From Bdellovibrionales bacterium (lineage in GTDB: Bacteria; Bdellovibrionota; Bdellovibrionia; Bdellovibrionales; JAUICD01): a stretch of 64,000 nt of DNA. A program made the position numbers and the translations under genes. Positions 25,551-64,000 of the stretch are shown one piece after another; position 1 is the first letter of the stretch; each line of letters starts with the position of its first letter. The stretch covers positions 2,720,001 through 2,784,000 of the forward strand of contig OZ253553.1 in the NCBI GenBank assembly GCA_965262715.1, given 5' to 3'. The notes beneath the pieces were generated by a model. The model was given only the letters and a program-made list of their open reading frames with translations. It did not search any database and was not told where the DNA came from.

Positions 25551-25790
25551 TACTTAGACTTATCTTGAAATTTACAAATTTCTTCCTTTGAAAAACCAGT
25601 AACTTTAGACACTTCTTCTCCACTCATTACAACGCCTTAAAAGTTTCAATATAACTTCCTTTATTCTTTCTTGTTGTCTTTCTTTTTTACCTTTCTTAAT
25701 TCCTTTTTCTATCCATTCTTATCATCTTTCCAGATGTTCTTCTCTGTGAGCTAGATTGTCTGCACTAACCCTCTCTCTTTTAGAGATCCT
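25551..25790 (-). pseudogene. Degenerate RpnS-like module (same at 58091-58330)
   Basis: RERVSADNLAHREE..EKGIKKG..SKVTGFSKEEICKFQ with stops and a frameshift. Confidence 0.7.
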
Positions 25791-25803
25791 ATCTCTTTTG
25801 GAT

Positions 25804-26406: not shown

Positions 26407-26445
26407 ATCGTCTCCTCAATCCTTAAGGTTCTTATATAAATTCTA

Positions 26446-36670: not shown

Positions 36671-36840
36671 GATTTTCAATATCAAATTGAAAAACTGACC
36701 ACTAGAGGTATTAAAAAGAGAATTTTATCATCAGAAGAATTTAATTTTTATATCTTTGCATAAAAATTTGAAATACACTATAAACTTTAGTATTTTCTAT
36801 ATAGTTCGTATTTTAAAAAAAGAAGGCAGGTTAGAGAGTT

Positions 36841-38469
36841 ATGACAAAAGAGCAACCATTAGCAGGTATAGAAAAAGAGCTATGGCAAGCAGCAGATAAG
36901 TTGAGAGCTAACATGGATGCTTCTCAATATAAGGATATTGTTTTGGGGCTTATCTTTCTTAAGTATATTTCTGATAAATTTGATGAGTTTAGGGAAAAAC
37001 TTAAATCTGATCTTACAAATCCTCAACATGAGCACCATTTGCCTGATGCAAGTCAAGATGACATAGAGTTTGAATTAGAAGAGAGAGACTATTATAAGGC
37101 CAACACTATTTTTTGGGTACCTGCCCCTGCTAGATGGCATGGAAATAAAAATACAGAAGTAAAGGGTATTCAAGACAAGGCCAAGCAGTCAGATATTGGT
37201 AAAATCATTGATGATGCTATGGTAGCTATTGAAAGAGAAAATCCTAAATTAAAAAATGTACTTCCTAAAATTTTTACTCAGAGAGGAGTTAATATAAGGC
37301 TTGGAGAACTTATTGATTTGATCTCAAAGATTGGATTTAATAGCTCAGATCATCATGCGAAAGACATCTTAGGTCATGTTTACGAGTATTTTTTAGGACA
37401 ATTTGCTTCTGCTGAAGGCAAAAGAGGAGGACAGTTTTACACACCTAGGAGTGTGGTCAATTTAATTGTTGAATGTTTAGAACCTTATAACGGAAGAGTT
37501 TATGATCCAGCAGTTGGTTCTGGAGGTTTCTTTGTCTCTAGTAAACGGTTTATTGAATCTCATACAGATAAAAAGCATATCAACAAAGCTAAAAGGGACA
37601 TATCACTTTTTGGACAGGAGTCTAATCCTACCACTTGGAGACTTGCAGCTATGAATATGGCTATTCGTGGAATTGAGGTAGATTTAGGCAAACAAAATGC
37701 TGATACTTTTACAAATAATCAACATCTTGATTTAAAAGCTGACTTTGTGATGGCCAATCCTCCTTTCAATATGAGTGATTGGGGAGGGGATCAGCTAACT
37801 GATGATAGAAGGTGGAAATATGGTATGCCTCCCAAAGCGAATGCCAATTTTGCTTGGATTCAGCACATTATCTATCATCTCTCTCCTAGAGGCTATGCAG
37901 GAGTTGTCTTAGCTAATGGTTCAATGTCTTCTAATACGAGCAACGAGGGAGTTATTAGAAAAAATCTCCTTGAGGCTGATATTGTGGATTGTATGATTGC
38001 TTTGCCGGGACAATTATTTTTCAATACGCAAATTCCTGCTTGTATATGGATCATGGCCAAAGACAAGTCGGGGAAAAAGGATGATAGGCGCAGTAGAAAA
38101 AATGAAGTTCTTTTTATTGATGCTAGGAATATGGGGGAGATGATCAGTCGTGTTCAAAGGGCTTTTTCAGATAAAGATATTTTGCAGTTAGCTAGCATTT
38201 ATCATACTTGGCGTAATAAGGATAAGGGATATAGTGATCAGGCGGGGCTTTGTAAATCGGTCACATTAGAGGAGATCAAGTCTCATGATTATGTATTAAC
38301 TCCTGGAAGGTATGTTGGTATAGCGGAGGTCAAAGATGATGGTATTCCTTTTCATAAAAAGATGGAGAAATTGACTGGAGAGTTAAGAGATAGTTTTATT
38401 GAATCTAAAAAGTTAGAAAAGCAAATTAAGAAAAATCTTACAGGTATTGGGTTTAAGATAGATTTATGA
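36841..38469 (+). CDS. hsdM: Type I R-M methyltransferase subunit
   Basis: LWQAADKLR, GGQFYTP, YDPAVGSGGF and ANPPFN motifs. Confidence 0.95.
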   Translation: MTKEQPLAGIEKELWQAADKLRANMDASQYKDIVLGLIFLKYISDKFDEFREKLKSDLTNPQHEHHLPDASQDDIEFELEERDYYKANTIFWVPAPARWHGNKNTEVKGIQDKAKQSDIGKIIDDAMVAIERENPKLKNVLPKIFTQRGVNIRLGELIDLISKIGFNSSDHHAKDILGHVYEYFLGQFASAEGKRGGQFYTPRSVVNLIVECLEPYNGRVYDPAVGSGGFFVSSKRFIESHTDKKHINKAKRDISLFGQESNPTTWRLAAMNMAIRGIEVDLGKQNADTFTNNQHLDLKADFVMANPPFNMSDWGGDQLTDDRRWKYGMPPKANANFAWIQHIIYHLSPRGYAGVVLANGSMSSNTSNEGVIRKNLLEADIVDCMIALPGQLFFNTQIPACIWIMAKDKSGKKDDRRSRKNEVLFIDARNMGEMISRVQRAFSDKDILQLASIYHTWRNKDKGYSDQAGLCKSVTLEEIKSHDYVLTPGRYVGIAEVKDDGIPFHKKMEKLTGELRDSFIESKKLEKQIKKNLTGIGFKIDL

Positions 38470-38858
38470 ACATAACTTCTTTAAAACAATCAGTTCAAGA
38501 TTTAGAAAGAGCGTTAGAAATCTGTTATAAGAATACAGAAAACGGTGTACTTAAGGACGCTTGTATTTACAGATTTAAAAACACTTATGAGATCACTGTT
38601 AGAATGATAAAAAGGTATTTAAAGGAAACTTCAAGCAATCCTTTTGAAATTGAAAAACTAACTTTCAATCAAATGATCAGCAAAGCTTTTGAGGCTTCTA
38701 TTATTAAATTAGAGTTTGAAGATTGGAAAAAATTTAGGGATTGTCGCATAAAAGTTAGTGAAAGTTATCAAGAGGAAGTAGTAGATGAAATTTTAAAAGA
38801 GGTTCCATTTTTTTTAAAAGAAGTTAAGTACCTCATCAGTCGTCTTGACAAAAACTGA
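38466..38858 (+). CDS. HI0074-type HEPN protein lacking the R-X4-H motif
   Basis: DACIYRFKNTYE..W..FRDCRIKVSESY; ATGA overlap with hsdM. Confidence 0.8.
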   Translation: MNITSLKQSVQDLERALEICYKNTENGVLKDACIYRFKNTYEITVRMIKRYLKETSSNPFEIEKLTFNQMISKAFEASIIKLEFEDWKKFRDCRIKVSESYQEEVVDEILKEVPFFLKEVKYLISRLDKN

Positions 38859-38876
38859 AACAGGAGGAACAAAGCA

Positions 38877-39284
38877 ATGAATAAATACGAAAAGTTTCAA
38901 AAAGCTTTAAAGCATTTAGAGCGAAGAAATACAGAATATAAGAACATAGATGAACAGTCTCAATGGATAAGGGAATCTATTATAGAATCTGTTATCCAAA
39001 GGTTTGAAGTTTGTTGTGATTGTTTGTAGAAGGCTTTGAAGGCTTATTTAGAAGAGAATTTAAAAGATTCTAAGATTCCAAATAGCCCTAAACCAATTTT
39101 TGAAATAGTTTGTGAAAAAAACATTTTAAGTGTGCCTAAAGAACAATGGCATAAATATATAGATATGAGAGATGCCACTAGCCATGACTACAATCATCAA
39201 AAAGCTCAAAGAGCAATAGATATAATAGATGGTTTTACTGATGATACCACTGGTCTTTATCAAACAATGACAGGTCAAACATAG
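38877..39284 (+). pseudogene. HI0074-type HEPN protein with an in-frame TAG at 39027
   Basis: ESVIQRFEVC..*KALK..RDATSHDY; AGGAGG RBS. Confidence 0.8.
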
Positions 39285-39292
39285 GAGTTAAA

Positions 39293-39712
39293 ATGCTTAA
39301 TTTATCATCATTAGAGAGTGCTATCAATGAGCTTGAATATTTTTTAAATTCTTATGACTCTAAGGAACATCAAGGAGATCCAAAAATAGTACGTATAGCA
39401 GCTATTAAAGCTTTTGAGTTTACTTATGAGCTAACTTTTAAAATGATGGAGCGTTATTTAAGGGAGAGCGCAGCAAGTGTTGATGATTTTAAAAGCGCAA
39501 CTTTTAAATTAATTATTCGAAAGGCTTATGCAGCCTCTATCACAAGTAAGGCAATTGAAGAATGGGAGGAATTTAGAGAAAATAGGAACAAAACAAGCCA
39601 TACATATAAAGAGAAGATAGCAATAGAAGTTTTTGAAAAGATTCCTGCTTTTTTAGAGGAAGCTCGGTATATATTAAAACAGTTAAAAGAGAGGATAAAA
39701 CATCTTGAGTAA
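39293..39712 (+). CDS. HI0074-type HEPN RNase toxin with intact motif
   Basis: AAIKAFEFTYEL..W..RENRNKTSHTY (R-X4-H). Confidence 0.85.
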   Translation: MLNLSSLESAINELEYFLNSYDSKEHQGDPKIVRIAAIKAFEFTYELTFKMMERYLRESAASVDDFKSATFKLIIRKAYAASITSKAIEEWEEFRENRNKTSHTYKEKIAIEVFEKIPAFLEEARYILKQLKERIKHLE

Positions 39713-41462
39713 GCCTGATATTCGCCCTGATCATCTTAAGATTGTGCAAGACATTTTGAATAAGAGCCTTTCAAGTGATATAAAGGTGTGGGTTTATGGT
39801 AGTCGTGCCAAGTGGACCACTCTTGATTCTTCTGATTTGGATTTAGCTTTAGAGAGCAAAGACAAAATTGATTATGAAGTGATGAATCGCTTAAACTGTG
39901 ATTTTGAAGAAAGCAATTTGCCTTATGAAGTGGACGTTGTAGATATAAATACAGTGCAGCTTTTTTTTAGAGATATTATCAATAAAGACAAAGTTTTATT
40001 AGATCGTTATACTTCGATGAAAGGAAAGAAGACTATTCCAAAAGGTTGGCAAGAAGTAAGATTAGGTGATGTTATTTTTGTAAATCCATTGGAGGTAATT
40101 CCAAAAGATAATACTAGAAAAAAAGTCTTAATGGATGATTTAACTCCTTTTAGAAAGAAAATTTCTAATTATACTAATGACATATATAAAGGAGGATCAA
40201 GATTCAGAAATGGAGATACTTTATTAGCTAGAATAACACCTTGCTTAGAAAATGGAAAAACAGCTTTTGTTGATGTTCTAGAAAAAGATGAAGTAGGATT
40301 CGGTTCGACAGAATTTATTGTTATGAGAAGTAAGCCACATTTAACTGATAAGCATTTTTTATTTTACCTTGCTATCTCTCCTTACTTCAGAAATCTAGCC
40401 ATTAAATCTATGACAGGTTCTTCAGGAAGGCAGAGGGTTCAGACTGACGAAATTATGAATATTAAAGTTTTTTTACCACCACTTCCAGAGCAGAAAGCAA
40501 TTGCAGAAATATTATCAAGTTTAGATGACAAGATAGAGCAAAATCAAAATATGAATAAGATATTGGAGGAGATGGCACAAGCTATTTTCAAGTCATGGTT
40601 TGTTGATTTTGATCCTATTTATGCAAAAAGGATGGCTTTAGAAGCAGGATTAGCAGGAGGTCAAGCTGAACGAGCAGCAATGGCAGTGATTGCTGGAGTG
40701 TGTAGTCCTAAGCAATTTGCAGAGAATTTCAGGCAGATGGATCGTAGCTTAGGTGAAAAGTTCTTTAAGATAAATGAAAGTGCGAAGTATGAATTAATTT
40801 ATAAGGCGTCATTATTTCCAAGTGAGTTTGTAGATAGCAAACTTGGTCTCATCCCAAAGAGCTGGAATATTTGCAAAATTGGAGAAAAAATTGATTTTAA
40901 TCCGACAACTCTTTTAAAAAAAGGAACAGCTGCAAATTATGTTGATATGAAGTCATTACCAACTTCTGGACATAGAATCAAACAAGTTGTAAGGAGAATA
41001 TTTAAATCAGGAACTAAATTTCAAAATGGTGATACTCTAATAGCTCGTATTACGCCATATTTAGAAAATGGAAAAACAGCTTATGTGGATCGTTTGGAAA
41101 ATGAAGAAGTAGCATGGGGATCAACAGAGTTTATTGTAATGAGGTCAAAAAAAGATGTATTTGGTATCTGGACATATTTGCTTAGTAGAAATGATGATTT
41201 TAGACGTTTCGCTATATCTAATATGTCTGGAACAAGTGGGAGACAAAGAGTTTCAGCAGATCTCTTATCTCAATATGAAATACCATTGGCAAGCATTAAG
41301 ATTTTAAGTAATTTCAATAGGGTAGTCACATCATTTTTTGAAAAAATGAAAAAGAATAGTGTTGAAAGTTCCTATCTTGAAGGTTGTCGAGACATTTTAT
41401 TGCCTAAGCTTTTATCAGGAGAGATTGATATCTCCAAAATCAAAACAAAGGAAAAATTATGA
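39705..41462 (+). CDS. hsdS: MNT nucleotidyltransferase fused to a type I specificity subunit
   Basis: VYGSRA..SDLDL..YEVDVVD (~100 aa), then IPKGW, two TRDs, LPPLPEQKAIA and RDILLPKLLSGEI. Confidence 0.9.
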   Translation: MSKPDIRPDHLKIVQDILNKSLSSDIKVWVYGSRAKWTTLDSSDLDLALESKDKIDYEVMNRLNCDFEESNLPYEVDVVDINTVQLFFRDIINKDKVLLDRYTSMKGKKTIPKGWQEVRLGDVIFVNPLEVIPKDNTRKKVLMDDLTPFRKKISNYTNDIYKGGSRFRNGDTLLARITPCLENGKTAFVDVLEKDEVGFGSTEFIVMRSKPHLTDKHFLFYLAISPYFRNLAIKSMTGSSGRQRVQTDEIMNIKVFLPPLPEQKAIAEILSSLDDKIEQNQNMNKILEEMAQAIFKSWFVDFDPIYAKRMALEAGLAGGQAERAAMAVIAGVCSPKQFAENFRQMDRSLGEKFFKINESAKYELIYKASLFPSEFVDSKLGLIPKSWNICKIGEKIDFNPTTLLKKGTAANYVDMKSLPTSGHRIKQVVRRIFKSGTKFQNGDTLIARITPYLENGKTAYVDRLENEEVAWGSTEFIVMRSKKDVFGIWTYLLSRNDDFRRFAISNMSGTSGRQRVSADLLSQYEIPLASIKILSNFNRVVTSFFEKMKKNSVESSYLEGCRDILLPKLLSGEIDISKIKTKEKL

Positions 41463-42502
41463 ATACTCTTGAATATAGATGCCCAATATGGAGTAACTCA
41501 AATGAACAACAAACACTTGATGCTAAGAGTTCATATAATAAAGATAAAAGGTGGTATGAGGTGGATTCACCAAGAGCTGGAGGTAAATATCGCATTTTAT
41601 GTGAAGCTGAGAAGAAGCTTAATCCCTCACTTGGAGATTCAGGTAATACAGATGATATTACACATCAAATAAGTTATGGTTTTAGAGCAAAGCTTACTAC
41701 ATGGCTTATTGAACAAAGAAAACAAGGAGATAAAAGCCCTTTAATTACTGATGAAGTATTAGAACAGATCCATAGTAAAAAAGACATTCCTATACAAGAA
41801 AGAATTAATAATGTTTTAAAATATATCTACGAAAAAAATCAGGAACATAAAAATAAATATTCACACTTTGATGAAATTCCTATAAATGTTGATGAGCTAA
41901 AAGCCTATGCCGAATGTGCCAATAATGATGATTTGCAGATCATACTCGATTATTTGAAACAAAACCAACTTATCAACATAGATGATAATCAACGTATAGA
42001 ACAGTTCTTAGAGATTACTTTGAATGTTAAAGGACTAGAAAGATTAGAATCTCTTGAAACCAATAAAGACAGCAGACAAGCTTTTGTTGCCATGTGGTTT
42101 GATGAAAGCATGAATAATATTTATGATAAAGCCATACAGCCGGCTATTGAAGAATTGGGTTATCAGGCGATGAGGATTGATAAAAAAGAGCATAACAACA
42201 AAATTGATGATGAGATCATAGCAGAAATTAAAAGATCAAAGTTTCTAATTGCTGATTTTTCTTATGGTAAGGATGGCATAAGAGGAGGTGTTTATTACGA
42301 AGCTGGTTTTGCTCACGGCTTAGGTATTCCGGTTATTTTCACTTGCCGTGAAGGAGATGAAAATAAATTACATTTTAACACTCGTCAATTCAAGCATCTT
42401 CTTTGGAAAGATGCAGAAGATTTAAAAAAGCAGCTAAAAGATCATATAGGAGCAACCCTTGGTGATGGCCCATTAAAATCAATAAATTACAAGCCTAAGT
42501 AA
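41459..42502 (+). CDS. Putative defence protein with C-terminal nucleoside 2-deoxyribosyltransferase/TIR-like domain
   Basis: AFVAMWF..RID..IDDEI..IADF..GGVYYEAGFAHGLGIPVIFTC; ATGA overlap with hsdS. Confidence 0.7.
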   Translation: MNTLEYRCPIWSNSNEQQTLDAKSSYNKDKRWYEVDSPRAGGKYRILCEAEKKLNPSLGDSGNTDDITHQISYGFRAKLTTWLIEQRKQGDKSPLITDEVLEQIHSKKDIPIQERINNVLKYIYEKNQEHKNKYSHFDEIPINVDELKAYAECANNDDLQIILDYLKQNQLINIDDNQRIEQFLEITLNVKGLERLESLETNKDSRQAFVAMWFDESMNNIYDKAIQPAIEELGYQAMRIDKKEHNNKIDDEIIAEIKRSKFLIADFSYGKDGIRGGVYYEAGFAHGLGIPVIFTCREGDENKLHFNTRQFKHLLWKDAEDLKKQLKDHIGATLGDGPLKSINYKPK

Positions 42503-45600: not shown

Positions 45601-46860
45601 AGTAAAGACAATCTGCTGGAATACCTTTTTTCAAATCAAGAAATATGGAAAATTCCCACTCGTAATATATCAGAAGACGACGTAGAAAATTGGCCAAAAT
45701 ATCTATCCTATCTTGACTCAGCTATTCTTTCTTTAGCAGATGACTTAGATGCCAATGTTGACAAGATATCTCAAATTTTAGATAACATTTTAAAAGGTTC
45801 ACTTTGGCAACGTCAAATGAATTTAATATCTGAAGGAGATCAAAGACTTCATCAAGAGATACTCAGACAAAGAGCTTCCTGGATTTGGGCCCATACAAAC
45901 TCTAAAGAACGTAGGGGATATTTTGCTGCTGGTGTTGGCTTAGAGTGTGGAAAGTATATTGATAATAATGAAGAAATGATCAGAAATCTTATAAATGCTG
46001 AAGATTATATACAATCAAGAGAAAAAGAAAAGTTTCTAGAAGCCATAATAAATTTTGCTGACTTGGCTTTCCAACAACCTTCTTTCAAACCTTATAAATA
46101 TTGTGATTGTTGGCAAGATGTATTGAAAGAATGGCTCTTAGGTAAACCTGTATCAGAGATTATCCAAATAGGTGGAAAAGAGACAGTTCCTTTTATTCAA
46201 GATGCATTGATCTATAAGTTAGTCTGGGCAATAGAGGCTGTATTCAATCAATCCAAACATACAAAAAAATTCAAAGATATACGACCTAAAAAAATCACAG
46301 ATATAAAAACTGAAAATTCAATTTTTAATGATACACTAGATAGTTTATTAAATGATATGGACTTTACAGATATTGAAATCAAAGACATTTCTTTAGCTAT
46401 AGAATGTGGCTCTCTCAATTTGTCTGAATGCACTCTTATCAAGGCAGGTTTAAATTCAAGAGTTGTAGCAAGAGAAGCTGTCAGAAAAGAACAAGGAAGA
46501 TTTCAAGATCATGATAGTATGAGGGCATGGTTAAAAGAACTACCTCGCGATGAAAACTGGCCAACTCCAGAAACAGCAAAGGAATGGAAAAAATTCATCG
46601 AGAGAACTTCTGAAAAAGAAAAGAAACTTGAAATCAAAACATGGGAAGCTTCATGCAAATGGTCAGATCAGCTTGATAGAATTCCTCAAGTTGACTGCAA
46701 ATTAAGAGTCAAAGTATCAAGAAAAAACCTCTCTATTTACTCTCCTGATTTTAAGCTCCTAGGAAATATCTCTAACAATAGAGATGATATTTCGACATCT
46801 GCAAATATTTGGGCTACTGTTATTTCTGAAGACAAGCTTGAGATTACACATATTGGATAA
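42604..46860 (+). CDS. Hachiman-like HamA (DUF1837 nuclease) - HamB (Ski2-like DEAH helicase) fusion
   Basis: SGDLGEILA..KLRWKD..RGDD..KGEVKS, then LPTSAGKT, DEAH, HHAGL, TLAQGLN, GRVGR. Confidence 0.8.
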   Translation: MNMFKKLFNSSSSSPQKLCTQTTLTEKNNMRSQLIKAVSEILPTHYISEETLQSWLEKLGASKALKLLKQKLPEDKKKNSGDLGEILATEYVNHELEYEVPIKKLRWKDSREQSLRGDDLIGFIDKENVLKILKGEVKSSVYITLSIIKKLEKQLNSNEGRPNRHSILFITERLRELGNTPLANKIERIIAEESIKRENIEHLGFTFSGNCPKEIHLKSLNKYNGTIKRIFVGLHIRDHQDFIKTVYQEAVTEKPIRQIVNREMKDEEKHLSLEELTKPEFRGRLLARGLARGMIWKDGRSPEDGPKFSKELTEDLLDYGYALFSIGLKKLESETDKTLLKKTFLIAGESIESVVRKGNPLDPYRGYHTVASAIAFHLAGYSARSYCMIPEDFKTSLNISHIELGLIYLLRRDLFQLRTWIEEVFNKDTSFKGDDEVSNDDLIQQFAIENNFLSAMAYLEFALQTGDNSLIENAFSKLDNGISVSKDFSHVPMWWQNFITKFLVKDLWKHTLHEVIPKGQETKWNQLRQLFISLLYMREKSEVDLWPSQLEAGKRCVDEKDDLVATLPTSAGKTRIAEMCILRTLSLEKRVIYITPLRALSAQTEQTLSDTFTPLGFTVSSLYGAIGSTKTDIDTLKSQNIVVSTPEKLSFALKNDPQILNDVGLVIFDEAHTLGLNEREINYEILIQKILKRKDADNRRLACLSAMFPQGQELNNFLSWIRQDQPGEAIQSDWKPTRQRFGVIEWKDTYARLDFTVDSEKPFIPKFIEGKPPKSRKGNFFPQNKNKLVLVSAWKQVSEGHRVLIYCPQRRSVEALAKLALDLCNKDHLQSLIESTETSSKSLIDDTIQSGKEWLGEDHIAITCLKLGIAVHHAGLPRPFLHSIERLIRKNICKIIISSPTLAQGLNLSASCLIVHSIYRKGKPVPKKEFLNVIGRVGRAFIDIDGIILFPVYESDKRKRDKQILEWRQLTSSQIENIQSGLFLLVEKLITLISKYRGYSKDNLLEYLFSNQEIWKIPTRNISEDDVENWPKYLSYLDSAILSLADDLDANVDKISQILDNILKGSLWQRQMNLISEGDQRLHQEILRQRASWIWAHTNSKERRGYFAAGVGLECGKYIDNNEEMIRNLINAEDYIQSREKEKFLEAIINFADLAFQQPSFKPYKYCDCWQDVLKEWLLGKPVSEIIQIGGKETVPFIQDALIYKLVWAIEAVFNQSKHTKKFKDIRPKKITDIKTENSIFNDTLDSLLNDMDFTDIEIKDISLAIECGSLNLSECTLIKAGLNSRVVAREAVRKEQGRFQDHDSMRAWLKELPRDENWPTPETAKEWKKFIERTSEKEKKLEIKTWEASCKWSDQLDRIPQVDCKLRVKVSRKNLSIYSPDFKLLGNISNNRDDISTSANIWATVISEDKLEITHIG

Positions 46861-51531: not shown

Positions 51532-54500
51532 ATGACAGAAAGAGACTTAGAACAACAATGTATTGACTGGTTCAAAGAAATTGGATGGAACTACCATCGT
51601 GGATATGACATCGCTCCTGATACAGACAATCCCAAACGTACAGATTATAGGCAAGTTGCATTAGAGGAATATTTATCTGAGTCCTTAGAAAGAATCAATC
51701 CTGATATTCCAAAAGAAAACATTAATGAGATCATTATAAAATTGACTCGACTTGATGCGTCCTCTGTTGAGTTCAATAATCGACAATTTCATAGATATAT
51801 TAATAATGGTATCCCTATTGAAATAAGAACAGATGAAGGTATGAAAAATGATATCGTTAGAATTATCGACTTTGAAAATCTACATAATAACCATTTTCTT
51901 GTAGTCAATCAGTTTACTGTTCAAGGAAACAATGGAAATCGAAGACCTGATATAGTTGTTTTTATCAATGGACTGCCTATCGTTGTTATTGAATTAAAAG
52001 ACCCTTTTGATGAAAATGAAGACATCTGGGAAGCCTATAAACAAATGGAAACTTATAAAGAAGAACTAACTGATCTCTTCGCCTACAATTTAGCCTGTGT
52101 GATCTCGGATGGATCAAATGCTAGAATAGGTTCCATTACAGCAGGAAAAGAAAGATACGGATTTTGGAGAACATTAAAAACAGAAAAAGATTGTCCAAAT
52201 TTTGAGTTTGAAATTGAAACTGTGATTAAAGGTTTTTTTGATAAAGAACTTCTTCTTGATTATCTTCGTTACTTTGTTGTTTTTGAAGAAAATGCAGGAA
52301 ACATTACAAAAAAAATTGCAAACTACCATCAATTTCATGCTGTACGTCAAGCCATTAATAGTACAATTGCTGCTACTTGTGATGTCAAAGATGGTAAATG
52401 TGGGGTGGTTTGGCATACTCAAGGTAGTGGAAAATCTATTTCTATGTGCTGCTATGCTGCTAAGCTCATGTCTCATGAAAGAATGAATAATCCCACTTTA
52501 GTTGTTGTCACAGATCGAAATGATCTTGATGGTCAACTCTATGAAACTTTTTGTAATGCCAGTGAACTTTTAAAAGAACATCCTCAACAGGCTGAGAATC
52601 GAAACAAGTTAAGACAACTTCTTAATCGACCATCAGGAGGGATTATTTTTACTACCATTCAAAAGTTTTCTCTTTTAAATGGTGAACATAAATTTCCAAA
52701 ACTGACTGATCGAAGTAATGTTGTTGTTATTTCTGATGAAGCTCACAGAAGCCAATATGGATTAAAAGCGAAGATTCGAGAAATCGATGGTAGAATAGTC
52801 TATGGTTATGCAAAACATTTGAGAGATGCCTTGCCAAATGCTGGGTTTATTGGTTTTACAGGAACACCCATATCAAAACAAGATAGAGATACTGTAGCTG
52901 TCTTTGGTGATTATGTTTCTATCTATGATATTAAACAAGCAGTTAAAGATTGTGCCACAGTTCCAATTTACTATGAGTCCAGGCTAGCTCAACTTCAGCT
53001 AGTTCAAGAAGCAAATGAGATTGATGCTGAAGTGGATGAAATTATGGAACAGTCCAATAATGGCTCAGACACCTATATCAATAAACAAAAAAGAAAATGG
53101 GCTGCGCTGGAAAAGTTAGTGACTACTGAGTCACGAATGAAACAAATTGCTGAAAATATTATTGAACACTGGGAAAAAAGACTAAATATTATGGATGGGA
53201 AAGCTATGATTGTTTGCATCTCAAGACAAGCTTGTGTGCAGATGTATAATGAGATTATTCATCTTAAACCTGAATGGGTTGGAACAACTGATAAAGTTGG
53301 TCGACCTCACCTGCAAAATGGTGTGATCAGAGTTGTGATGACAGGAAGTGCTAGCGATGAAAAGTTTCTTCGCACTCATGTCTATGACAAAAAGGGACGT
53401 AAAAGCTTGGAAAACCGCTTTAAAGATCCAAGTGACTCTTTGAAGATTGTTATTGTAAGAGATATGTGGCTGACAGGTTTTGATGCTCCTATTTTACATA
53501 CTATGTACATTGATAAACCCATGAGAGGAGCTAACCTCATGCAAGCCATTGCTCGTGTCAATAGAGTTTTTGAAGAGAAGCCAGGTGGTCTTATAGTTGA
53601 TTATCTTGGTATTGCTAATGATCTTAAAGATGCTCTTAAAACCTATATCCAAGCTGGAGGGAAATCAAAACCAACAATTGATATCTATGAGGTATTAGGA
53701 GTTCTTCAAGGTAAAATAGATTATGTAAGGGATATGCTCAAAAACATTAACTACTTGGAATATAAAGATCCTAAGAAAATTTTCTCTATCATTACTGATG
53801 CCTGTGATTATCTTTTGGAAACAGAAGATAGAAAGAAAACATTTTGTGATACTGTCTTAGCTATGACAAAAGCCAATGCTTTATGCGGCGTTGTTCCTGA
53901 AGCTGTAGAGCTTCAGGATGAAATAGCTTTTTTTCAAGCTGTTAGAGTAGCTCTTACTAAAAAAGATCGTCTTCAAGAAAGTATTTCTGATGAGCAAGTA
54001 CAAAATGCTCTTAGACAAGTGGTTTCCAATGCTATTGTCTCAGATAAGATTATTGATATTTTTGAAGCAGCAGGACTTCATAAACCAGATATTTCAATTT
54101 TATCTGAAGAATTTCTAGAAGAAATTAAAAATATAAAACAAAAAAATTTAGCAGTAGAAATGCTTTCTCGTCTCCTCAAAGAAGAATTTAAATCAAAGAT
54201 AGCAACGAATATTATCCAACAAAAAAAATACTCTCAATTGCTCACTGATGCATTGAACAAGTATAGAAATCGTACTATTGAGACATCTCAAGTCATTGAG
54301 GAGCTAATACAAATGGCTAAAGATTTTAGAACAGAAAAAGATAGAGGACAAAGTCTTGGGTTGAACAATGATGAATTAGCCTTTTACGATGCTCTTTCTG
54401 ATAACGATTCTGCAAAAGAAGTCTTAGGAGATGAAATTCTTAAAAAAATGGCGAATGAACTTACAGAGCAATTGAGAAAAAGTGTAACAATCGATTGGGC

Positions 54501-54645
54501 TAAAAGAGAAAGTGTGCGTGCTAATATTCGGCTCAAGATTAGAAGATTATTAAAAAAATATAAGTATCCACCTGACAAAGAAGATGCTGCTGTAAAGTTA
54601 GTGCTTGAGCAAGCAGAAACTTTATCACAAAGCTGGATTCATTAA
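51532..54645 (+). CDS. hsdR: Type I R-M restriction subunit
   Basis: RPDIVVFING..IELK, HTQGSGKS, DEAHRSQY, FTGTP, QAIARVNR. Confidence 0.95.
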   Translation: MTERDLEQQCIDWFKEIGWNYHRGYDIAPDTDNPKRTDYRQVALEEYLSESLERINPDIPKENINEIIIKLTRLDASSVEFNNRQFHRYINNGIPIEIRTDEGMKNDIVRIIDFENLHNNHFLVVNQFTVQGNNGNRRPDIVVFINGLPIVVIELKDPFDENEDIWEAYKQMETYKEELTDLFAYNLACVISDGSNARIGSITAGKERYGFWRTLKTEKDCPNFEFEIETVIKGFFDKELLLDYLRYFVVFEENAGNITKKIANYHQFHAVRQAINSTIAATCDVKDGKCGVVWHTQGSGKSISMCCYAAKLMSHERMNNPTLVVVTDRNDLDGQLYETFCNASELLKEHPQQAENRNKLRQLLNRPSGGIIFTTIQKFSLLNGEHKFPKLTDRSNVVVISDEAHRSQYGLKAKIREIDGRIVYGYAKHLRDALPNAGFIGFTGTPISKQDRDTVAVFGDYVSIYDIKQAVKDCATVPIYYESRLAQLQLVQEANEIDAEVDEIMEQSNNGSDTYINKQKRKWAALEKLVTTESRMKQIAENIIEHWEKRLNIMDGKAMIVCISRQACVQMYNEIIHLKPEWVGTTDKVGRPHLQNGVIRVVMTGSASDEKFLRTHVYDKKGRKSLENRFKDPSDSLKIVIVRDMWLTGFDAPILHTMYIDKPMRGANLMQAIARVNRVFEEKPGGLIVDYLGIANDLKDALKTYIQAGGKSKPTIDIYEVLGVLQGKIDYVRDMLKNINYLEYKDPKKIFSIITDACDYLLETEDRKKTFCDTVLAMTKANALCGVVPEAVELQDEIAFFQAVRVALTKKDRLQESISDEQVQNALRQVVSNAIVSDKIIDIFEAAGLHKPDISILSEEFLEEIKNIKQKNLAVEMLSRLLKEEFKSKIATNIIQQKKYSQLLTDALNKYRNRTIETSQVIEELIQMAKDFRTEKDRGQSLGLNNDELAFYDALSDNDSAKEVLGDEILKKMANELTEQLRKSVTIDWAKRESVRANIRLKIRRLLKKYKYPPDKEDAAVKLVLEQAETLSQSWIH

Positions 54646-57156: not shown

Positions 57157-58050
57157 TTATATTTCCTTAAGCTTTTCTAACTCTTCTCTACTCAGCTTTG
57201 TAGAATCAAGAATAACTTGAATATCAACTCCACTTTTTAGCATATTTAAAGCAATTTCTCTGCATTCTTTCTCAATCCCTTTCTCTATCTCCTTCTCTAT
57301 CCCTTCTTGTTGTCCTTCTCTTCGAGCTAAGTTTTCTGCACTAATTCTATCTCTCTCTTGTTTATCGATTGCTTCTAAATATTCTATTAAAACTTCATCT
57401 TGAGATAAGTTCCAAAACTTCTTTCCTGTTCTTGCTATATTTCTTCCTTTCATAGCTTCTCTAAGGTCTTCTAATCTTTTAAGTCCTTCTAATGCGTCCT
57501 TAGTAAATTTTGTAACATCAAGAATAATCTGAGTATCGACTCCATTTTTTAGCATATTTAAAGCAACATTCTCACGTTCTTTATGTAGTCCTTTTATAAC
57601 TCCTTCTTCAAATCCTTCTGTGTGAATGAGTTTTTCTCTATTGACTCTATTCTTCTTTTTCTTTTCAAGGATATGTAGGTATTCACTTTCAATCTCTTTT
57701 TGAGAAATATCCCGGTAGTTCTCTACTTCCCTTGTTATGTCAATATCTTGACTCTTAAAATTCTTATACAAAATCTGCTGTTTAGCTTTTTCCTTAAATT
57801 CATAAATTTTTTCTTTTGAAAAACCAGTGACTTCAGATATCCTTTCTATTTCTACACCAGAATCTAGAAACTTTAATATGGCTTCCTCTACTCCTTCCTG
57901 TTGTCCTTTCTTAAATCCATCCTCGACACCTACTTTATAAACATGTTCTTCGCTACTAACTCTATCTCTTTCCATCTTGTCATAGGCATACAAGTATTCC
58001 TCTTCACCTTCTTTTTGGGAAAAATTCCAAAGTTTCTCTGTTTCTGCCAT
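57157..58050 (-). CDS. Three fused RpnS-like modules
   Basis: Identical to 24620-25510 for ~200 aa, with a different third module. Confidence 0.8.
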   Translation of the reverse strand: MAETEKLWNFSQKEGEEEYLYAYDKMERDRVSSEEHVYKVGVEDGFKKGQQEGVEEAILKFLDSGVEIERISEVTGFSKEKIYEFKEKAKQQILYKNFKSQDIDITREVENYRDISQKEIESEYLHILEKKKKNRVNREKLIHTEGFEEGVIKGLHKERENVALNMLKNGVDTQIILDVTKFTKDALEGLKRLEDLREAMKGRNIARTGKKFWNLSQDEVLIEYLEAIDKQERDRISAENLARREGQQEGIEKEIEKGIEKECREIALNMLKSGVDIQVILDSTKLSREELEKLKEI

Positions 58051-58343
58051 ATCGTCTCCTCAACCCTTAAAGTCCTCATATAAAGTTTATTACTTAGACT
58101 TATCTTGAAATTTACAAATTTCTTCCTTTGAAAAACCAGTAACTTTAGACACTTCTTCTCCACTCATTACAACGCCTTAAAAGTTTCAATATAACTTCCT
58201 TTATTCTTTCTTGTTGTCTTTCTTTTTTACCTTTCTTAATTCCTTTTTCTATCCATTCTTATCATCTTTCCAGATGTTCTTCTCTGTGAGCTAGATTGTC
58301 TGCACTAACCCTCTCTCTTTTAGAGATCCTATCTCTTTTGGAT

Positions 58344-58946
58344 TTATAGATATTTTTTAAGATGTTCTAATTTTTTAAGTCTTTCTAACTCGTCCTTAGT
58401 AAATTTTGTAACATCAAGAATAACCGGGGTATCAACTCCAATCTTTACCATATTTAAAGTAATGTTCTCACGTTCTTTTTGTAGTCCTTTTATAAATCCT
58501 TCTTCAAATCCTTCTTTGCGAATGAGTTTCTCTCTATTGGCCCTATTCTTCTTTTTCCTTTCGAGAACATACAAGTGTTCACCTTCATCCTCTTCTTGAG
58601 AAACATCCCAATAGTTCTCTACTTCCTTTGTTATATCAATGTTTTGATTCTTAAAATTCTTATACAAAATCTGTTGTTTAGTTTTTTCATGAAACTTATG
58701 AATTTTTTCTTTTGTAAAACCAGTAATTTCAGATACTTTTTCTATCTCCTCATCAGCATCTAAAAATTTTAATATAACTCCCTCCATTCCTTCTTGTCGT
58801 CCTTGCTCAAATCCATCCTCAACACCTTCTTTATAAACAAATTCTTCTCTAGTTATTCTATCTCTTTCCATCTTGTCGTAGACAGATAAGTTTTTTTCTT
58901 CACCTTCTTTTTGAGAAAAGTCCCAAAAGTTTTCTGCCTTTGCCAT
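58344..58946 (-). CDS. Two fused RpnS-like modules
   Basis: Identical protein to 25804-26406. Confidence 0.8.
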   Translation of the reverse strand: MAKAENFWDFSQKEGEEKNLSVYDKMERDRITREEFVYKEGVEDGFEQGRQEGMEGVILKFLDADEEIEKVSEITGFTKEKIHKFHEKTKQQILYKNFKNQNIDITKEVENYWDVSQEEDEGEHLYVLERKKKNRANREKLIRKEGFEEGFIKGLQKERENITLNMVKIGVDTPVILDVTKFTKDELERLKKLEHLKKYL

Positions 58947-59944
58947 ATCGTCTCCTCAATCCTTAAGGTTCTTATATAAATTCTATTATTTAGATCTTTC
59001 TTGAAACTTACAAATTTCTTCCCTTGAAAAACCGGTAACTTTAGACACTTCCTCTGCACTCATACCAGTATTTAGAAACTTTAATATAACTTCCGCTATC
59101 CCTTCCTGCCGTCCTTTTTCTATCCCTTTTTCTATTCCCTCCTGTTGTCCTTCTCTGCGGGCTAGGTTTTCTGCGCTAATTCTATCTCTTTCTCTTTTAT
59201 CAAACGCATCTATATATTCTTGTAAAGCCTCATCTTGGGATAAGTTCAAGAGATGTTTTACTGCTTTTGCCATATCTTCTCCTTTATTTTCCAAACTCTT
59301 ATATTCAGTATCATTCATTTTATATGAATTCTTTAATAAATAACACCATGACTCTCTTATATCATACAATTGCTTTACATTTTTATCAAATTTCCCTAAC
59401 TCTGCTTTTTTCACTAAAAATGAACCAGCCGTCGAGGTGAGCCTCTGGCTGTTTTTGGGCAATGACCCCGACGGCTAATGCCCTCGGCAAATAGGTCATT
59501 GCCTCAAAAACCTGTTCATTTTTAGTAAGAAGATACTCTTCATTTTTTAATAAGATGCTAAGGGAATATTAAAGCCTACATGCATATACCAATGCTCTAT
59601 CTGTAAAATAAGGTTTTGATACTGTTTGCATCTCTACATTTACAATCTCTGTTTTCTGGGTACCTGATTGTGTGTTCCTTTTTAAATGCATTCTCAAGTC
59701 GAGAACAAATCTTCTACCAGATTCTTCACCTTTTATAACAGAAGGAGTATCAGGATGAAGATCAGGATCTAAAACGTCTACTTTTATAACTTCTGAATGT
59801 TTTGGAAGTGGCAAAAAATGTGTGAGTAGTGATTTTAAAGCTTCTTCATTGCCTTTAAAATAGGTTTTAAAAGCTGCGTCATTTGTTAATTTTAAAAAAT
59901 GAGACTTTTTTAAAAATTCTTCAATATCTAATAACTGATGTTTA

Positions 59945-61351
59945 GAGGTTGTCCCATAGATCGGTGAAATTTTCTTATAGAAATTAGAAGAAAGTAGAGC
60001 TCCCGGCTATCCTAAGTGGTCTAGCCGTTGTTTACTGTTTTTATTTTATCAGGAAATAGATAACAGAAAGGAGCTATTATGAAGAGTAGTAAGAATGGTT
60101 ATTCAATTCAAGTTTTATCATCTGAGTCAAATGAGATTCGAGAGATCCTAGAGCATCGCATGAGATCAATGGTTATTAATATGATCCATGATTTCTTTGA
60201 GGATGAGTTATTATCACTGTGTGGTAAGCGTCATGTTCGTGGTCGTGATACAAGATATTACAGAGCGGGTAGTGATTCTGGGAGTGTTCTTGCACAAGGT
60301 CAAAGGCTTCAGGTGAGGAAGCCTAGGGTGAAGGAGAAGGGAGGTTCTGATATTAAGCTGCGGTCTTATTCAGTGCTTCAAAAGTATGACATACTTTGTG
60401 ATAAAGTTTTGAGTCATGCTATGAGAGGGGTATCTTGTCGTAATTACAATGAACTTCTTGATGATATTGTAGGAGGGACGGGTCTTTCTAAGAGTACAGT
60501 GAGCAGAGTCTTTAATAAGTCATCTAGGAAGTTTCTTGAATCTTTAAATGGTCGTGATCTGAGTAAGGATAAGTTTTCATCAATTATGATTGATGGTGTT
60601 GTTTTTGGATCAAGGACAGTGGTTGTAGCTCTTGGCATCACAGTTGAAGGTAAGAAGTTAGTTCTGGGTCTTAGAGAGGGTCATACAGAGAACTGGGAAG
60701 TTTGCAAGGACTTATTAGAGAGTTTAATAGCAAGAGGTCTTTGTTCAGATAAGCCTTACCTTTTTGTAATTGATGGTAGCAGATCTTTAAGGACAGCTAT
60801 TAATAGAGTTTTTGGTAAGAGAGCAGTAGTTCAACGCTGTATTCACCACAAGGAGAGGAACGTTTTAAGTTATTTACCTCAGGAACGTCATTTAGAGTTT
60901 AAGCGTCGCTGGAAGATGGTGCATGGTTTTAATGATTATGATTCTGCTCAGAGAGAATACAATAAGTTACTGAGTTGGTTAAGCAGGATTAATTATGCAG
61001 CATTGGCTTCACTTAAGGAAGCAAAGGAGGAGACACTGACAGTTATCAAGTTGAAGGTATCTCCACTGCTAAGGAGAACCTTATCTTCTACAAATCCTAT
61101 TGAGTCTGCCTTTTCTATTGTAAGTGATAAAGTCAGCAGGGTTAAGAACTGGAGAAGTTCTCCAGATCAGGTTATGAGATGGGCTGCTGCTTCTTTAGTT
61201 GAAGCTGAAAAAAAGTTTAGAGCTATTAAAGGGTATAAAGATTTAAATACAATGGAAGAAAATTTAAACCTATTGACTAACAATAGAAACAGGCGTAGCA
61301 AAACATCAAGCTCTGCTTAACTTCAATTTCACCGAAACGTGGGACATCCTC
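59945..61351 (+). mobile_element. IS256-family insertion sequence, 1407 bp, 8-bp TSD GATGTTTA
   Basis: TIRs GAGGTTGTCCCATAGATCGGTGAAATT / GAGGATGTCCCACGTTTCGGTGAAATT; TSD at 59937-59944 and 61352-61359. Confidence 0.95.
60079..61320 (+). CDS. IS256 (Mutator-type) transposase
   Basis: IMIDG, VIDG, QRCIHHK and STNPIES motifs. Confidence 0.95.
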   Translation: MKSSKNGYSIQVLSSESNEIREILEHRMRSMVINMIHDFFEDELLSLCGKRHVRGRDTRYYRAGSDSGSVLAQGQRLQVRKPRVKEKGGSDIKLRSYSVLQKYDILCDKVLSHAMRGVSCRNYNELLDDIVGGTGLSKSTVSRVFNKSSRKFLESLNGRDLSKDKFSSIMIDGVVFGSRTVVVALGITVEGKKLVLGLREGHTENWEVCKDLLESLIARGLCSDKPYLFVIDGSRSLRTAINRVFGKRAVVQRCIHHKERNVLSYLPQERHLEFKRRWKMVHGFNDYDSAQREYNKLLSWLSRINYAALASLKEAKEETLTVIKLKVSPLLRRTLSSTNPIESAFSIVSDKVSRVKNWRSSPDQVMRWAAASLVEAEKKFRAIKGYKDLNTMEENLNLLTNNRNRRSKTSSSA

Positions 61352-61510: not shown

Positions 61511-61765
61511 CATACATTTATTTTATTTGTTTTTGTAAGACATACTTATTTAAAGTTTTTATTTAATGTTGAAAGACTAACTGTTAAGAGGATTAAAAAG
61601 AGGCCTTTATTGTCAAAAGAACTTGCCAGAAAACTCACTAGCACGAAGCTAAATATTTAAAATTTATTTTTTATAGCCCTGCACAAAAATTTGAAATACA
61701 CTATAAACTTTAGTATTTTCTATATAGTTCGTATTTTAAAAAAAAGAAGATAGGGTAAGAAATTT

Positions 61766-61900
61766 ATGACAAAAGAACCATCATTAGCAAATATGGAGAA
61801 ACTGACTGGAGAGTTAAGAGATAGCTTTATTGAATCTAAAAAGTTAGAAAAGCAAATTAAAGAAAACTTAGCAGGTATTGGTTTTAAGATAAGCTTATGA
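61766..61900 (+). CDS. 44-aa mini-HsdM (N-terminal ~9 aa joined in frame to the C-terminal 35 aa of HsdM)
   Basis: MTKEPSLANMEKLTGELRDSFIESKKLEKQIKENLAGIGFKISL*; upstream 61681-61745 duplicates the hsdM upstream region ~36758-36822. Confidence 0.75.
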   Translation: MTKEPSLANMEKLTGELRDSFIESKKLEKQIKENLAGIGFKISL

Positions 61901-64000
61901 ATATAACTTTTTTAGAGCAATCCATTCAAAATTTAGAAAAAGCCTTAGACAGATACCATAAACATAAAGAGGATAAAAGCACGTTAAAGGATATTTTTAA
62001 AGATTCTTGTATTTACAGATTTAAAAACACTTATGAAATTACTTTTAAAATGATGAAAAGGTATTTAAAGGAAGCTTCCAGCAATCCTTTTGAAATTGAA
62101 AAATTAACATTCAATCAAATAATCGAAGAAGCTTTTACAGCTTCTATTATTAAGTTGGAGGTTAAAGATTGGAAAAAGTTTAGAGAGCACTGCATAAGGA
62201 TGAGTGAATTTTATAAAGAAGACGAGGGTGATGAAGTTTTAAAAGAAATTCCACTTTTTTTAGAAGATGTTAAATACTTCATTAGCCGTCTTAATGAAAG
62301 CTTATCACCGGAGAAAGAAATAACGAATAAGCATGATAAGCCTGATATTCACCCCGGTCATCTTAAAATTGTTCAAGACATTTTGAATAAGACCCTTTCA
62401 AGTGATGTAAAGGTATGGGTTTATGGCAATCGTGCTAAGTGGGCCACTCTTGATTCTTCTGATCTGGATTTAGCTTTAGAGGGTACAGGTAAAATTGATA
62501 ATAACACTATAAGTCAACTGGAACATGATTTTGAAGAGAGTGACCTACCTTATGAAGTGGATATTGTGGATATAGCAGTAGTACAGCCTTTTTTCAAGGA
62601 TGTTATCAATAAAGATAAAGTTTTATTAGATCGTTATGCTTCAATGAAAAAAAAGAAGACTATTCCAAAAGGTTGGCGAAAAGTGAGATTAGGGGATTTA
62701 ATTGATATTAAACATGGTTATGCATTTGATGGCAAACATATAACAAATGACGTTAACGAAAATATTTTAGTAACTCCAGACAACTTTCATATTGGAGGAG
62801 GATTTAAATCTTCAAAATTAAAATATTGCAATGGTGATATTCCAGCAGATTACATCTTAAGTGAAGGTGATAAAATTGTAACAATGACAGATTTAAGTAA
62901 AGAAGGAGATACACTTGGTTATTCTGCAAAAATTCCTAAAAGCAAAAATGGTGAAATATATTTACATAATCAAAGAATAGGATTACTTCAATACCAATCA
63001 AAAGATGTTTATGAAGACTTTATTTATTGGATAATGAGGAGTAATAAGTATCAACAATTTATAGTTAGTGCTGCTACTGGTACTTCTGTAAGACATACAT
63101 CCCCAACAGCTATTAAAAAATACAAATTTTATTTGCCACCTCTTCCTGAGCAGAAAGCAATTACAGAAATATTATCAAGTTTAGATCACAAGATAGAGCA
63201 AAATCAAAATATAAATAAGGCATTGGATGAAATGACACAAGCTATTTTCAAGTCATGGTTTGTTGATTTTGACCCTGTTCATGCAAAAAAGATGGTTTTA
63301 GAGGCAGGGTTATCAAAAAAGAAGGCAGAGCGAGCAGCAATGGCAGTGATTACTGGAATGTGCAGTCCCAAGCTGTTTATAGAAAATATTAAGCAGATGG
63401 ATCACAGTTTAAGTGAAAAGTTATCTAAGATGAGTCAAAACAAGAGAGATAAGTTATCTTACACAGCATCATTATTTCCAAATGAGTTTGTAGACAGCAA
63501 CCTTGGCCTCATCCCTAAAGATTGGTCTTGTAAATCTATAGGCAACATTGCAACTGTTATAGAAGGAGGAACTCCTGCAACCAAAAATAAAAAATATTAT
63601 TGTAACAAAGGGGAGGGAATTCCATGGTTGACACCAAAGGATCTCTCTAGATATTCATGGAAATATATCTCCAGTGGAGCAATAGACATAACTGAGTCTG
63701 GGTTAATAAATTCGGGCGCAAAAATAGTACTTAAAGGGACTGTACTGATTTCCTCGAGAGATCCAATTGGTTATATAGCAATTGCTGAAAATAAATTGTC
63801 TATAAATCAAAATTTTAAGTGTTTAGTTCCTCATATTGATACTCAATTTCTTTATTACTGGGCAAAAAGTAATATTGATAACATAGAAGCTGCAGCTACA
63901 ACAGGTCTTACGTTCAAAAAGATAACCAGAAGGAATATAGAAAATCTTAAACTTGTAGTGCCAAATAGAGATATCATGAACCAATTTAATCGATTCACAG
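61897..64000 (+). CDS. hsdS: HEPN-MNT-HsdS triple fusion, partial (runs off the window)
   Basis: Hand translation is open from ATG 61897 to the end: DSCIYRFKNTYE (HEPN), VYGNRA..SDLDL (MNT), IPKGW..LPPLPEQKAI..second TRD. Confidence 0.9.
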   Translation, partial: MNITFLEQSIQNLEKALDRYHKHKEDKSTLKDIFKDSCIYRFKNTYEITFKMMKRYLKEASSNPFEIEKLTFNQIIEEAFTASIIKLEVKDWKKFREHCIRMSEFYKEDEGDEVLKEIPLFLEDVKYFISRLNESLSPEKEITNKHDKPDIHPGHLKIVQDILNKTLSSDVKVWVYGNRAKWATLDSSDLDLALEGTGKIDNNTISQLEHDFEESDLPYEVDIVDIAVVQPFFKDVINKDKVLLDRYASMKKKKTIPKGWRKVRLGDLIDIKHGYAFDGKHITNDVNENILVTPDNFHIGGGFKSSKLKYCNGDIPADYILSEGDKIVTMTDLSKEGDTLGYSAKIPKSKNGEIYLHNQRIGLLQYQSKDVYEDFIYWIMRSNKYQQFIVSAATGTSVRHTSPTAIKKYKFYLPPLPEQKAITEILSSLDHKIEQNQNINKALDEMTQAIFKSWFVDFDPVHAKKMVLEAGLSKKKAERAAMAVITGMCSPKLFIENIKQMDHSLSEKLSKMSQNKRDKLSYTASLFPNEFVDSNLGLIPKDWSCKSIGNIATVIEGGTPATKNKKYYCNKGEGIPWLTPKDLSRYSWKYISSGAIDITESGLINSGAKIVLKGTVLISSRDPIGYIAIAENKLSINQNFKCLVPHIDTQFLYYWAKSNIDNIEAAATTGLTFKKITRRNIENLKLVVPNRDIMNQFNRFT

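Follow-up and report, generated by a model that had tools for sequence, protein, structure and literature searches.

The stretch analysed here, referred to as the window, covers 64,000 nucleotides (G000:C1:2720001-2784000) of a 2.94 Mb host genome that is assembled as one contig. At its downstream end lies a cassette that consists, in order, of a copy of the promoter region of a type I restriction-modification operon, an hsdM stub (mini-HsdM), a single gene in which HEPN, MNT and HsdS are fused, and an hsdR 3' stub (Table 1). The cassette runs beyond the window, where the fusion is followed by an 81-aa ORF, the hsdR stub and an Rpn gene, a gene of this kind also standing behind the primary hsdR. 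Full hsdM and hsdR genes of the same family are present 25 and 10 kb upstream of the cassette, whereas the cassette itself is flanked by stubs only. As the promoter copy, the stubs and the order of the Rpn gene all mirror the primary operon, the cassette corresponds to a copy of the whole operon minus the interior of hsdM and most of hsdR. Within a defence island bounded by Rpn genes, it represents a second type I operon allele that has collapsed.

Nine sequencing runs from four studies contain the stretch wholly or partly, six of them half of it or more, and five of the nine were examined. None of the runs listed is of RNA, which carries no information on expression. In one sample from a different study (X5/X6) the whole cassette is tiled and the fusion frame is open, and as the contigs of this second study carry identical junctions an assembly artefact is unlikely.

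Table 1. Features of the cassette, its flanks and the primary operon (window positions unless L001 is given; L001 positions lie outside the window)
Feature	Position	Strand	Remarks
Full HsdM	36841..38469	+	inferred trans partner
Three tandem HEPN genes	38466..39712	+	His-less 38466-38858; stop-broken 38877-39284; intact RX4HXY 39293-39712
Primary MNT-HsdS	39705..41462	+	intact GS-X10-DLD
Full HsdR	51532..54645	+	
Mutator-family (IS256-like) transposase	60079..61320	+	directly upstream of the cassette, between pieces of an Rpn gene
Copy of hsdM upstream region	61661..61765	+	60-bp perfect core 61685-61744; putative promoter
Mini-HsdM, 44 aa	61766..61900	+	ATGA overlap with next gene; also present in the second strain (P0139)
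HEPN-MNT-HsdS fusion, 746 aa	61897..64000	+	window-equivalent 61897-64137; whole gene G000:C1:2781897-2784137
HEPN-M (HI0074-like) domain	61897..62295	+	RX4HXY without R and H; Tyr kept
Linker	62296..62337	+	like the natural HEPN1 tail of relatives, then like the beginning of the following HEPN gene (TNKHDK vs MNKYEK); common to P0005
MNT domain	62338..62637	+	GN-X10-DLD instead of GS-X10-DXD
TRD1	62680..63132	+	type not present in primary hsdS; 84% identity with TRD1 of P0002
HsdS central conserved region	63136..63525	+	first long helix and helical insert
TRD2	63526..63966	+	type not present in primary hsdS; 78% identity with TRD2 of P0002 and P0003
81-aa ORF	L001:5131-5376		no known family; joined in frame to the hsdR stub in the second strain
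hsdR 3' stub	L001:5333-5765		3'-terminal 434 nt of hsdR, at 96% identity with 54212-54645
Rpn-like gene	L001:5824-6816	-	

The HEPN-MNT-HsdS fusion

An earlier note, made from the window only, had described one open frame joining a HEPN without its motif, an MNT with GN in place of GS and an HsdS whose two TRDs differ from those of the primary hsdS, and Pfam, motif and block alignments all agree with that description. When the contig was extended, as the note had proposed, the frame proved complete, with a normal end 137 bases past the window that rules out a truncation just beyond it. Across the 746 residues Pfam recognises NTase_sub_bind (4-133), Polbeta (171-246) and two stretches of Methylase_S, and PADLOC assigns Specificity_I to residues 260-738 (E 1.7e-99). 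The AlphaFold model, with a mean pLDDT of 66.8 (the TRD loops being low) and a pTM of 0.46, matches HsdS structures, HI0073/MNT and HI0074, with HsdS structures as the best Foldseek matches; the two TRDs are separated and trailed by the long conserved HsdS helices, at 416-453 and 691-731.

At the position of the type VII motif the HEPN domain of the fusion reads CIRMSEFY, where the intact HEPN gene at 39293 reads RNKTSHTY. The domain is a paralogue (67% aa) of the standalone HEPN at 38466-38858, which is itself already without the histidine, and the missing motif was therefore not caused by the fusion.

The altered residue of the MNT domain is rare among its kin, the position in GSX10DXD being S in 174 of the 184 MNT-bearing homologues, N in one (the copy in the sister strain), G in one and unmatched in eight, and the MntA model scores the fusion at 24.6 bits against a cut-off of 60. 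This serine binds the ATP phosphates in MntA according to the published text, where a GS double mutant abolishes adenylylation (PMC7641770); by analogy AMP transfer has probably been lost from the fusion, the precedent being that double mutant and not a single S-to-N change. An inactive MNT would fit a chain that has no live toxin of its own.

In an alignment with the primary hsdS (39705-41462), matches are confined to the MNT block (82.9% nt) and the central block (82.2%), and the TRDs do not align. The first of the conserved helices that bind HsdM is identical to that of the primary HsdS at 41 of 47 positions.

Duplicated units and the origin of the fusion

The cassette is not the only collapsed copy in the island. 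Behind it lies a third unit that has the same upstream region, followed by an 85-aa ORF in which the start of hsdM is joined in frame to the end of hsdS. Next in this unit come a paralogue of the TIR-like gene found after the primary hsdS, further cargo, one more hsdR end and one more Rpn gene. The hsdS end in this third unit has 91% identity with that of the primary hsdS; hsdS itself has been deleted there, and the hsdR stub of the unit is unfused. The whole region from ~22 to 96 kb is an array of partly duplicated units bounded by Rpn genes, and many genes in the island are broken. Four deletion junctions were examined and three of these are in frame, one of the three in the second strain only. 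Each unit has lost what the primary operon already provides, and the deletions in the cassette leave its non-redundant gene whole.

The synonymous distance to the primary operon is large, with a dS of 0.47-0.84 for the hsdM stub and the HEPN, MNT and HsdS blocks and of 0.15 for the hsdR stub, and for this reason the cassette would appear to be a diverged allele or a mosaic, rather than a recent duplicate.

The linker between the first two domains of the fusion follows the HEPN1 tail of the relatives P0125 and P0126 and then comes to resemble the start of the second HEPN gene before the MNT is reached; the two HEPN genes that carry the motif would seem to have been deleted. The linker had also been considered as the product of a lost HEPN1 stop codon, which was dropped as HEPN1 of relatives normally runs on through that stretch.

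The fusion is rare. It is found in two of the best 120 full-length homologues (P0001, from the sister strain, and P0005) and, as one partial case (P0273), among the best 150 representatives; it is absent from all 37 locus rows, and no stop-free match running from HEPN to MNT was seen among 400 other genomes of the phylum. Alignment-based scans of two collections recovered 12 and 14 related loci, none with the triple fusion, and scans for related loci with single proteins recovered nothing in two collections. In P0005 the linker is the same, GS is intact and both TRDs differ from those seen here. P0005 apparently lies beside a full 542-aa HsdM, as P0003 apparently lies beside a full HsdM, the placement in both cases coming from matching longest-contig values (25073 and 46161) and not from a reading of the DNA. 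If this co-location holds, the fusion apparently predates the collapse and would act in P0005 as the principal S subunit within an intact operon.

Possible selection on the fusion

The evidence for selection on the fusion is split, and it is here that a reading of the cassette as a decaying relic or passive reservoir of TRDs has to be weighed. Under such a reading function was lost when the operon collapsed, the frame has been open for a short time only and the future use of the gene would be as a donor of TRDs. Between the two strains the fusion has accumulated 18 changes, 12 non-synonymous and 6 synonymous, for an omega of 0.5-0.9 that lies close to neutrality (p 0.16-0.53 against neutral), with changes at sites that are near-invariant in kin (R152H, D431H and L729F here; L217I and P727S in the other strain). 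Both of these points speak for a relic, however HsdM diverges equally between what are apparently the same two strains, at 13 of 542 residues compared with 12 of 746 in the fusion (p=0.32). HsdR was rejected as a control for divergence, the HsdR of the other strain differing at 90 of 1037 residues and so being a different allele.

A similar balance is seen at conserved sites. The fusion departs from the lineage at 15 of 150 conserved positions outside the TRDs, which together with a GS to GN change confined to one of the 184 homologues would again suggest decay, but 11 departures at conserved sites are common to both strains. Departures at the same positions number 0-3 in five close kin, 6 and 9 in two others and 21-34 in three more distant ones. 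The stem branch of the fusion is long, at 0.19 compared with mostly 0.05-0.11, one of the kin reaching 0.20. Measured against the primary operon, every block has a dN/dS of 0.20-0.31, a range that may predate the collapse. When changes are polarised on the same-genus genome G001, the ratio of synonymous to non-synonymous changes is 41:69 (37%) in the fusion lineage and 29:44 (40%) in the primary lineage (p=0.76), with the central block leaning towards an excess of replacement (5:19 vs 13:16, p=0.085).

No stop or indel is present across the 746 codons in the two strains. A simulated neutral gene at this strain distance stays open in 56-76% of runs, and the open frame is therefore weak evidence of selection; at 0.05-0.1 neutral substitutions per site the frame is open in 3% to 0% of simulations, which, along with a promoter core that is perfectly preserved, counts against a relic. 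A visibly decayed version does exist in G001, where there is an hsdM remnant with stops, a stop within an MNT-MNT-HsdS gene and no matching hsdR in the 60 kb read, and the identical TRD2 of P0002 and P0003 shows that the swaps required of a reservoir do occur. Taken together, a relic is the main alternative, a possible, if tentative, account of the cassette.

The promoter copy and mini-HsdM

The duplication of the hsdM upstream region, claimed in the earlier note, is borne out, positions 36738-36833 and 61661-61757 being 90.7% identical over 97 nt (86.5% over 141 nt when the first codons are included). One match to the consensus TTGAAA-17-TATTTT is found in the copy, however consensus sites of this kind number 15 compared with 15.9 in shuffled sequence and the match alone is no evidence. 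The reduction of hsdM was also correctly described: an in-frame deletion has left the first ~9 and the last 35 codons, joined at a microhomology (I-E-K / M-E-K) and with the ATGA coupling kept.

It had further been suggested that mini-HsdM may be more than a leader peptide. Half of the argument stands, as the C-terminal tail that contacts HsdS has been kept: the 35 residues align with the tails of the M subunits of PacII and EcoR124, and those of PacII form a four-helix bundle with HsdS that is required for assembly, which is disrupted when the tail is deleted (PMC9613975, from the published text). Against this, an equivalent in-frame stub that carries the end of hsdS is present in the next cassette, and the peptide has no homologues outside its own two-member cluster in a search of proteins of 24-77 aa. 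A search of the PDB with the 44-aa stub returned chance matches only. The simpler reading is that mini-HsdM would be a deletion scar that retains the promoter and coupling, because the last 35 codons are those that overlap the next start, the next unit has its hsdS-end stub and no other mini-HsdM was found.

The same evidence bears on a regulatory role for the whole module, in which the peptide would bind the coiled coil of HsdS and tune or block M2S assembly, whilst the dead HEPN would poison or tether the active HEPN dimer. The retained tail segment would suit such a role, as would a dN/dS of 0.20 over the 37 codons compared with hsdM, but that low value may predate the deletion, the retained codons are exactly those the overlap requires and stubs of hsdS and hsdR equivalent to that of hsdM occur within the same array. 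For the HEPN half, a His-less HEPN1 is kept in several relatives and motif-less and intact HEPNs also stand in tandem at the loci L030 and L050. The earlier note had the fused HEPN recruiting or sequestering the active one; since the primary operon already encodes a standalone HEPN without the motif, the fusion would add nothing unique in this respect. A regulatory module is, on this balance, distinctly unlikely.

Shuffling of the TRDs

Combinations of TRDs have been shuffled among relatives of the fusion. P0003 and P0012 have near-identical conserved blocks and a TRD1 that is 97% identical, yet their TRD2s are unrelated; the TRD2s of P0003 and P0002 are 100% identical; and P0005 has a TRD2 with 99% identity to that of P0009, a protein with a TRD1 that is in turn 94% identical to that of the primary hsdS here. 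Given this shuffling, and as kin share both identity and odd residues with the fusion TRDs, the latter are circulating alleles. Substitutions in the TRDs had been considered as signs of decay, a candidate that was dropped when P0002 and P0003 were found to carry them too: the unusual residues are common to P0002 (and P0003).

The proposal that the cassette is a partner for TRD exchange divides in two: exchange across the lineage is supported, a switch operating in the genome today is not. Three conserved blocks are common to the two hsdS genes, which lie 22 kb apart, and this with the shuffled TRDs would favour an active, shufflon-like phase-variable switch between them; they are on the same + strand with ~82% identity and a longest perfect (direct) match of 37 bp, whereas the published text on known inverting hsdS systems defines these by 100% inverted repeats (PMC7394358). 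Comparison of the two copies gave no sign of recent TRD exchange within the genome, and at 97% likeness no joint within the cassette is seen in the second-strain contigs (from which rare variants would be dropped). Such a switch is very improbable. The 26 proteins scanned, which are part of the island ORFs, include IS transposases and Rpn proteins, and no tyrosine or serine recombinase family was seen among them.

A proposed specificity subunit that would borrow its partners

In place of relic, regulator or switch, the reading that is preferred here, with a probability of roughly 0.55, is that the cassette is a collapsed operon copy whose one intact gene would be an orphan specificity subunit with a disarmed passenger, borrowing the primary HsdM and HsdR. 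The earlier suggestion of an alternative specificity subunit for the same HsdM/HsdR is plausible.

A sequence of events can be proposed. A diverged allele of the whole operon would have been added in tandem, and deletions at short microhomologies may then have taken out the redundant hsdM and hsdR, the stub that was left presumably retaining the promoter, start and ATGA coupling needed for translation of the fusion. Transcription would proceed from the copied promoter with translation coupled to the stub, and the fusion is predicted to pair with the primary HsdM through its conserved helices, creating a second site for methylation and restriction. The HEPN-MNT head would be a disarmed passenger, lacking the RNase motif and probably unable to transfer AMP, and toxin control would therefore rest on the primary MNT-HsdS. 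The two extra TRDs may double as a reservoir from which domains are swapped at a slow pace. An active gene would illustrate a cheap route to a second specificity: an operon allele is taken in whole, its redundant enzyme genes are deleted in frame, and what stays is the promoter with a coupling stub.

The MNT-HsdS module and known systems

The cassette derives from a module that is far from rare, although it is itself rare and probably disarmed. MNT-HsdS makes up 85 of the 150 best representatives and occurs in 20 of the 37 locus rows, with an intact RX4HXY HEPN upstream in 18 of those 20 (some rows being near-duplicates), and two further modules of HEPN plus MNT-HsdS are present in this genome. 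No description of MNT-HsdS or of the triple fusion was found in the literature searched, figures and subscription papers lying outside it, and the text supplement of one survey (PMC3710099; 4,325 characters) held no match. This widespread module, an antitoxin tethered to a restriction enzyme as a possible guard, is the stronger lead. An extended scheme would make MNT-HsdS a widespread "guarded specificity subunit", in which RM loss or phage inhibition frees the upstream HEPN RNase, and the cassette an add-on specificity uncoupled from the toxin, its dead HEPN binding the live toxin and its 44-aa HsdM tail peptide choosing which S subunit loads onto HsdM; as a whole this is an unlikely scheme.

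Fusions of HEPN and MNT are known, and fused HEPNs are typically without catalytic residues according to the text of the 2013 survey (PMC3710099; PMC2701414), the fused FhepTA of Shewanella being described as an active, regulated exception (PMC13000451). Like the fusion, FhepTA has both HEPN and MNT in one polypeptide; the fusion differs in its order (HEPN-MNT and not MNT-HEPN), in having no toxin motif and in the HsdS that comes next. With HepT/MntA of type VII it has in common a PF08780 HEPN by a minimal nucleotidyltransferase, with the acceptor Tyr and the DXD kept, but R and H of RX4HXY are missing, GN replaces GS and the two domains share a single chain with HsdS. The text of the 2013 survey also has HEPNs linked to R-M systems fusing to nucleases, helicases and ATPases, not to methylases (PMC3710099); a HEPN on a predicted S subunit is an exception to this published rule of no fusion to the modification side.

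Defence genes embedded in type I RM operons, including PrrC, are comparable in that they, too, belong to a defence island, with a HEPN nuclease gene and other cargo placed among the hsd genes (Payne et al. bioRxiv 10.1101/2024.01.29.577857 and PMC3710099, in their available text). In the parent module of the cassette, however, the antitoxin is covalently part of HsdS, and in the cassette there is no toxin motif and the hsd core is reduced to stubs; the fusion is furthermore unlike PrrC in that its 746 aa have no ATPase domain and no HEPN motif. Inverting hsdS loci such as SpnD39III, as described in PMC7394358, likewise have two hsdS genes with distinct TRDs within 30 kb, but those of the cassette and the primary operon are in direct orientation, their shared blocks have diverged and no sign of recent exchange within the genome is seen.

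The closest parallel is with the orphan HsdS of lactococci (PMC12418389), which the published text describes as a full two-TRD subunit apart from a complete hsdM/hsdR, with a predicted partner in trans, and among which orphan S subunits are common and are reported to methylate and protect. The fusion lacks a complete hsdM or hsdR within its unit and has a pair elsewhere in the genome, its compatibility with that pair being suggested by the helix identity noted above. Where the lactococcal subunits are found on plasmids as well as chromosomes, the cassette is chromosomal, arose from the collapse of a whole operon, lies behind an hsdM stub and has HEPN-MNT at the N-terminus of its HsdS. It is probably a variant of the orphan HsdS, its rare triple fusion likely inherited from an intact operon.

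Specificity subunits carrying an antitoxin

In several bacterial groups, type I operons carry an HEPN gene and, next in order, a gene that fuses MNT to HsdS; in all of these loci, the primary operon of the window included, the specificity subunit incorporates the antitoxin (MNT). Searches of the openly accessible literature found no description of this layout, and the module is a candidate guard or addiction device. Within the genome under study (G000) it is also found in a different type I family, and at a further site neither hsdM nor hsdR was found in the 11 kb read around the pair, with the TRD1 of its MNT-HsdS having 79% DNA identity to that of the primary hsdS.

Location of features (window positions unless prefixed; L, DNA loci read)
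Feature	Location	Remark
HEPN, then MNT-HsdS, in type I operons	39293-41462; L023, L026-L030, L034-L043, L021, L058
Tandem HEPN genes	38466-39712	His-less, stop-broken (stop 39027-39029), intact
HEPN with intact motif, MNT-HsdS	G000:C1:2921080-2923036	minus strand
hsdM-HEPN-MNT-HsdS, other type I family	G000:C1:1391080-1394384
Decayed operon, same-genus genome G001	L018:14876-18433	G001:C1:1959876-1963433
Promoter core, 60 bp	36762-36821 / 61685-61744	perfect
Third collapsed copy	L001:7411-8702	window-equivalent 66411-67702
SocA-like gene, then 634-aa protein	L001:9140-11630	third unit
Array of Rpn-bordered units	21900-64000, on to about 96000	two Rpn-like families
Duplication, 2.7 kb	24753-27418 / 57293-59944	98.7%
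HamA-helicase protein	42604-46860	1418 aa
Four-gene set	L002:4981-12571	membrane coiled-coil, MotB-like, middle gene, SNF2 helicase

Copies, decay and exchange

The first of the three HEPN genes in the primary operon ends 6-9 residues short of its relatives P0125 and P0126; motif-less and intact HEPNs likewise stand in tandem at L030 and L050. The decayed version in G001 has an hsdM remnant bearing stops, two HEPNs that are both motif-less, and an MNT-MNT-HsdS broken by a stop.

The promoter core shared by the primary operon and the second copy contains an imperfect inverted repeat (ACTATA...TATAGT), and its conservation is far above that of the flanking genes; it is possibly an operator, or the trace of recent gene conversion. 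The primary operon is a mosaic, since HsdR (51532-54645) differs from the allele on a second-strain contig (P0136) at 90 of 1037 residues whereas the adjoining HsdM differs at 13 of 542. The hsdR stub has four differences, two of them common to the P0136 allele.

In the third collapsed copy the start of HsdM is joined in frame to the end of HsdS as an 85-aa stub, which recurs in the second strain (P0414) and precedes a paralogue, 83% identical, of the TIR-like gene at 41459-42502. The 176-aa SocA-like gene of the third unit is assigned by a weak NCBIfam match, and the 634-aa protein, whose C-terminal stretch is hydrophobic, gave no match in PADLOC.

The two Rpn-like families that border the units of the array gave 8 and 11 tblastn matches in the first 100 kb, and these genes may act as recombination anchors; a KAP NTPase region is also duplicated within the array.

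Neighbouring defence genes

The HamA domain and DEAD-box helicase found in one chain are a Hachiman A-B pair as a single protein, inside the restriction-modification operon. The four-gene set, whose SNF2 helicase has an HNH-like motif at its C-terminus, presumably resembles Zorya, a putative likeness based on architecture.
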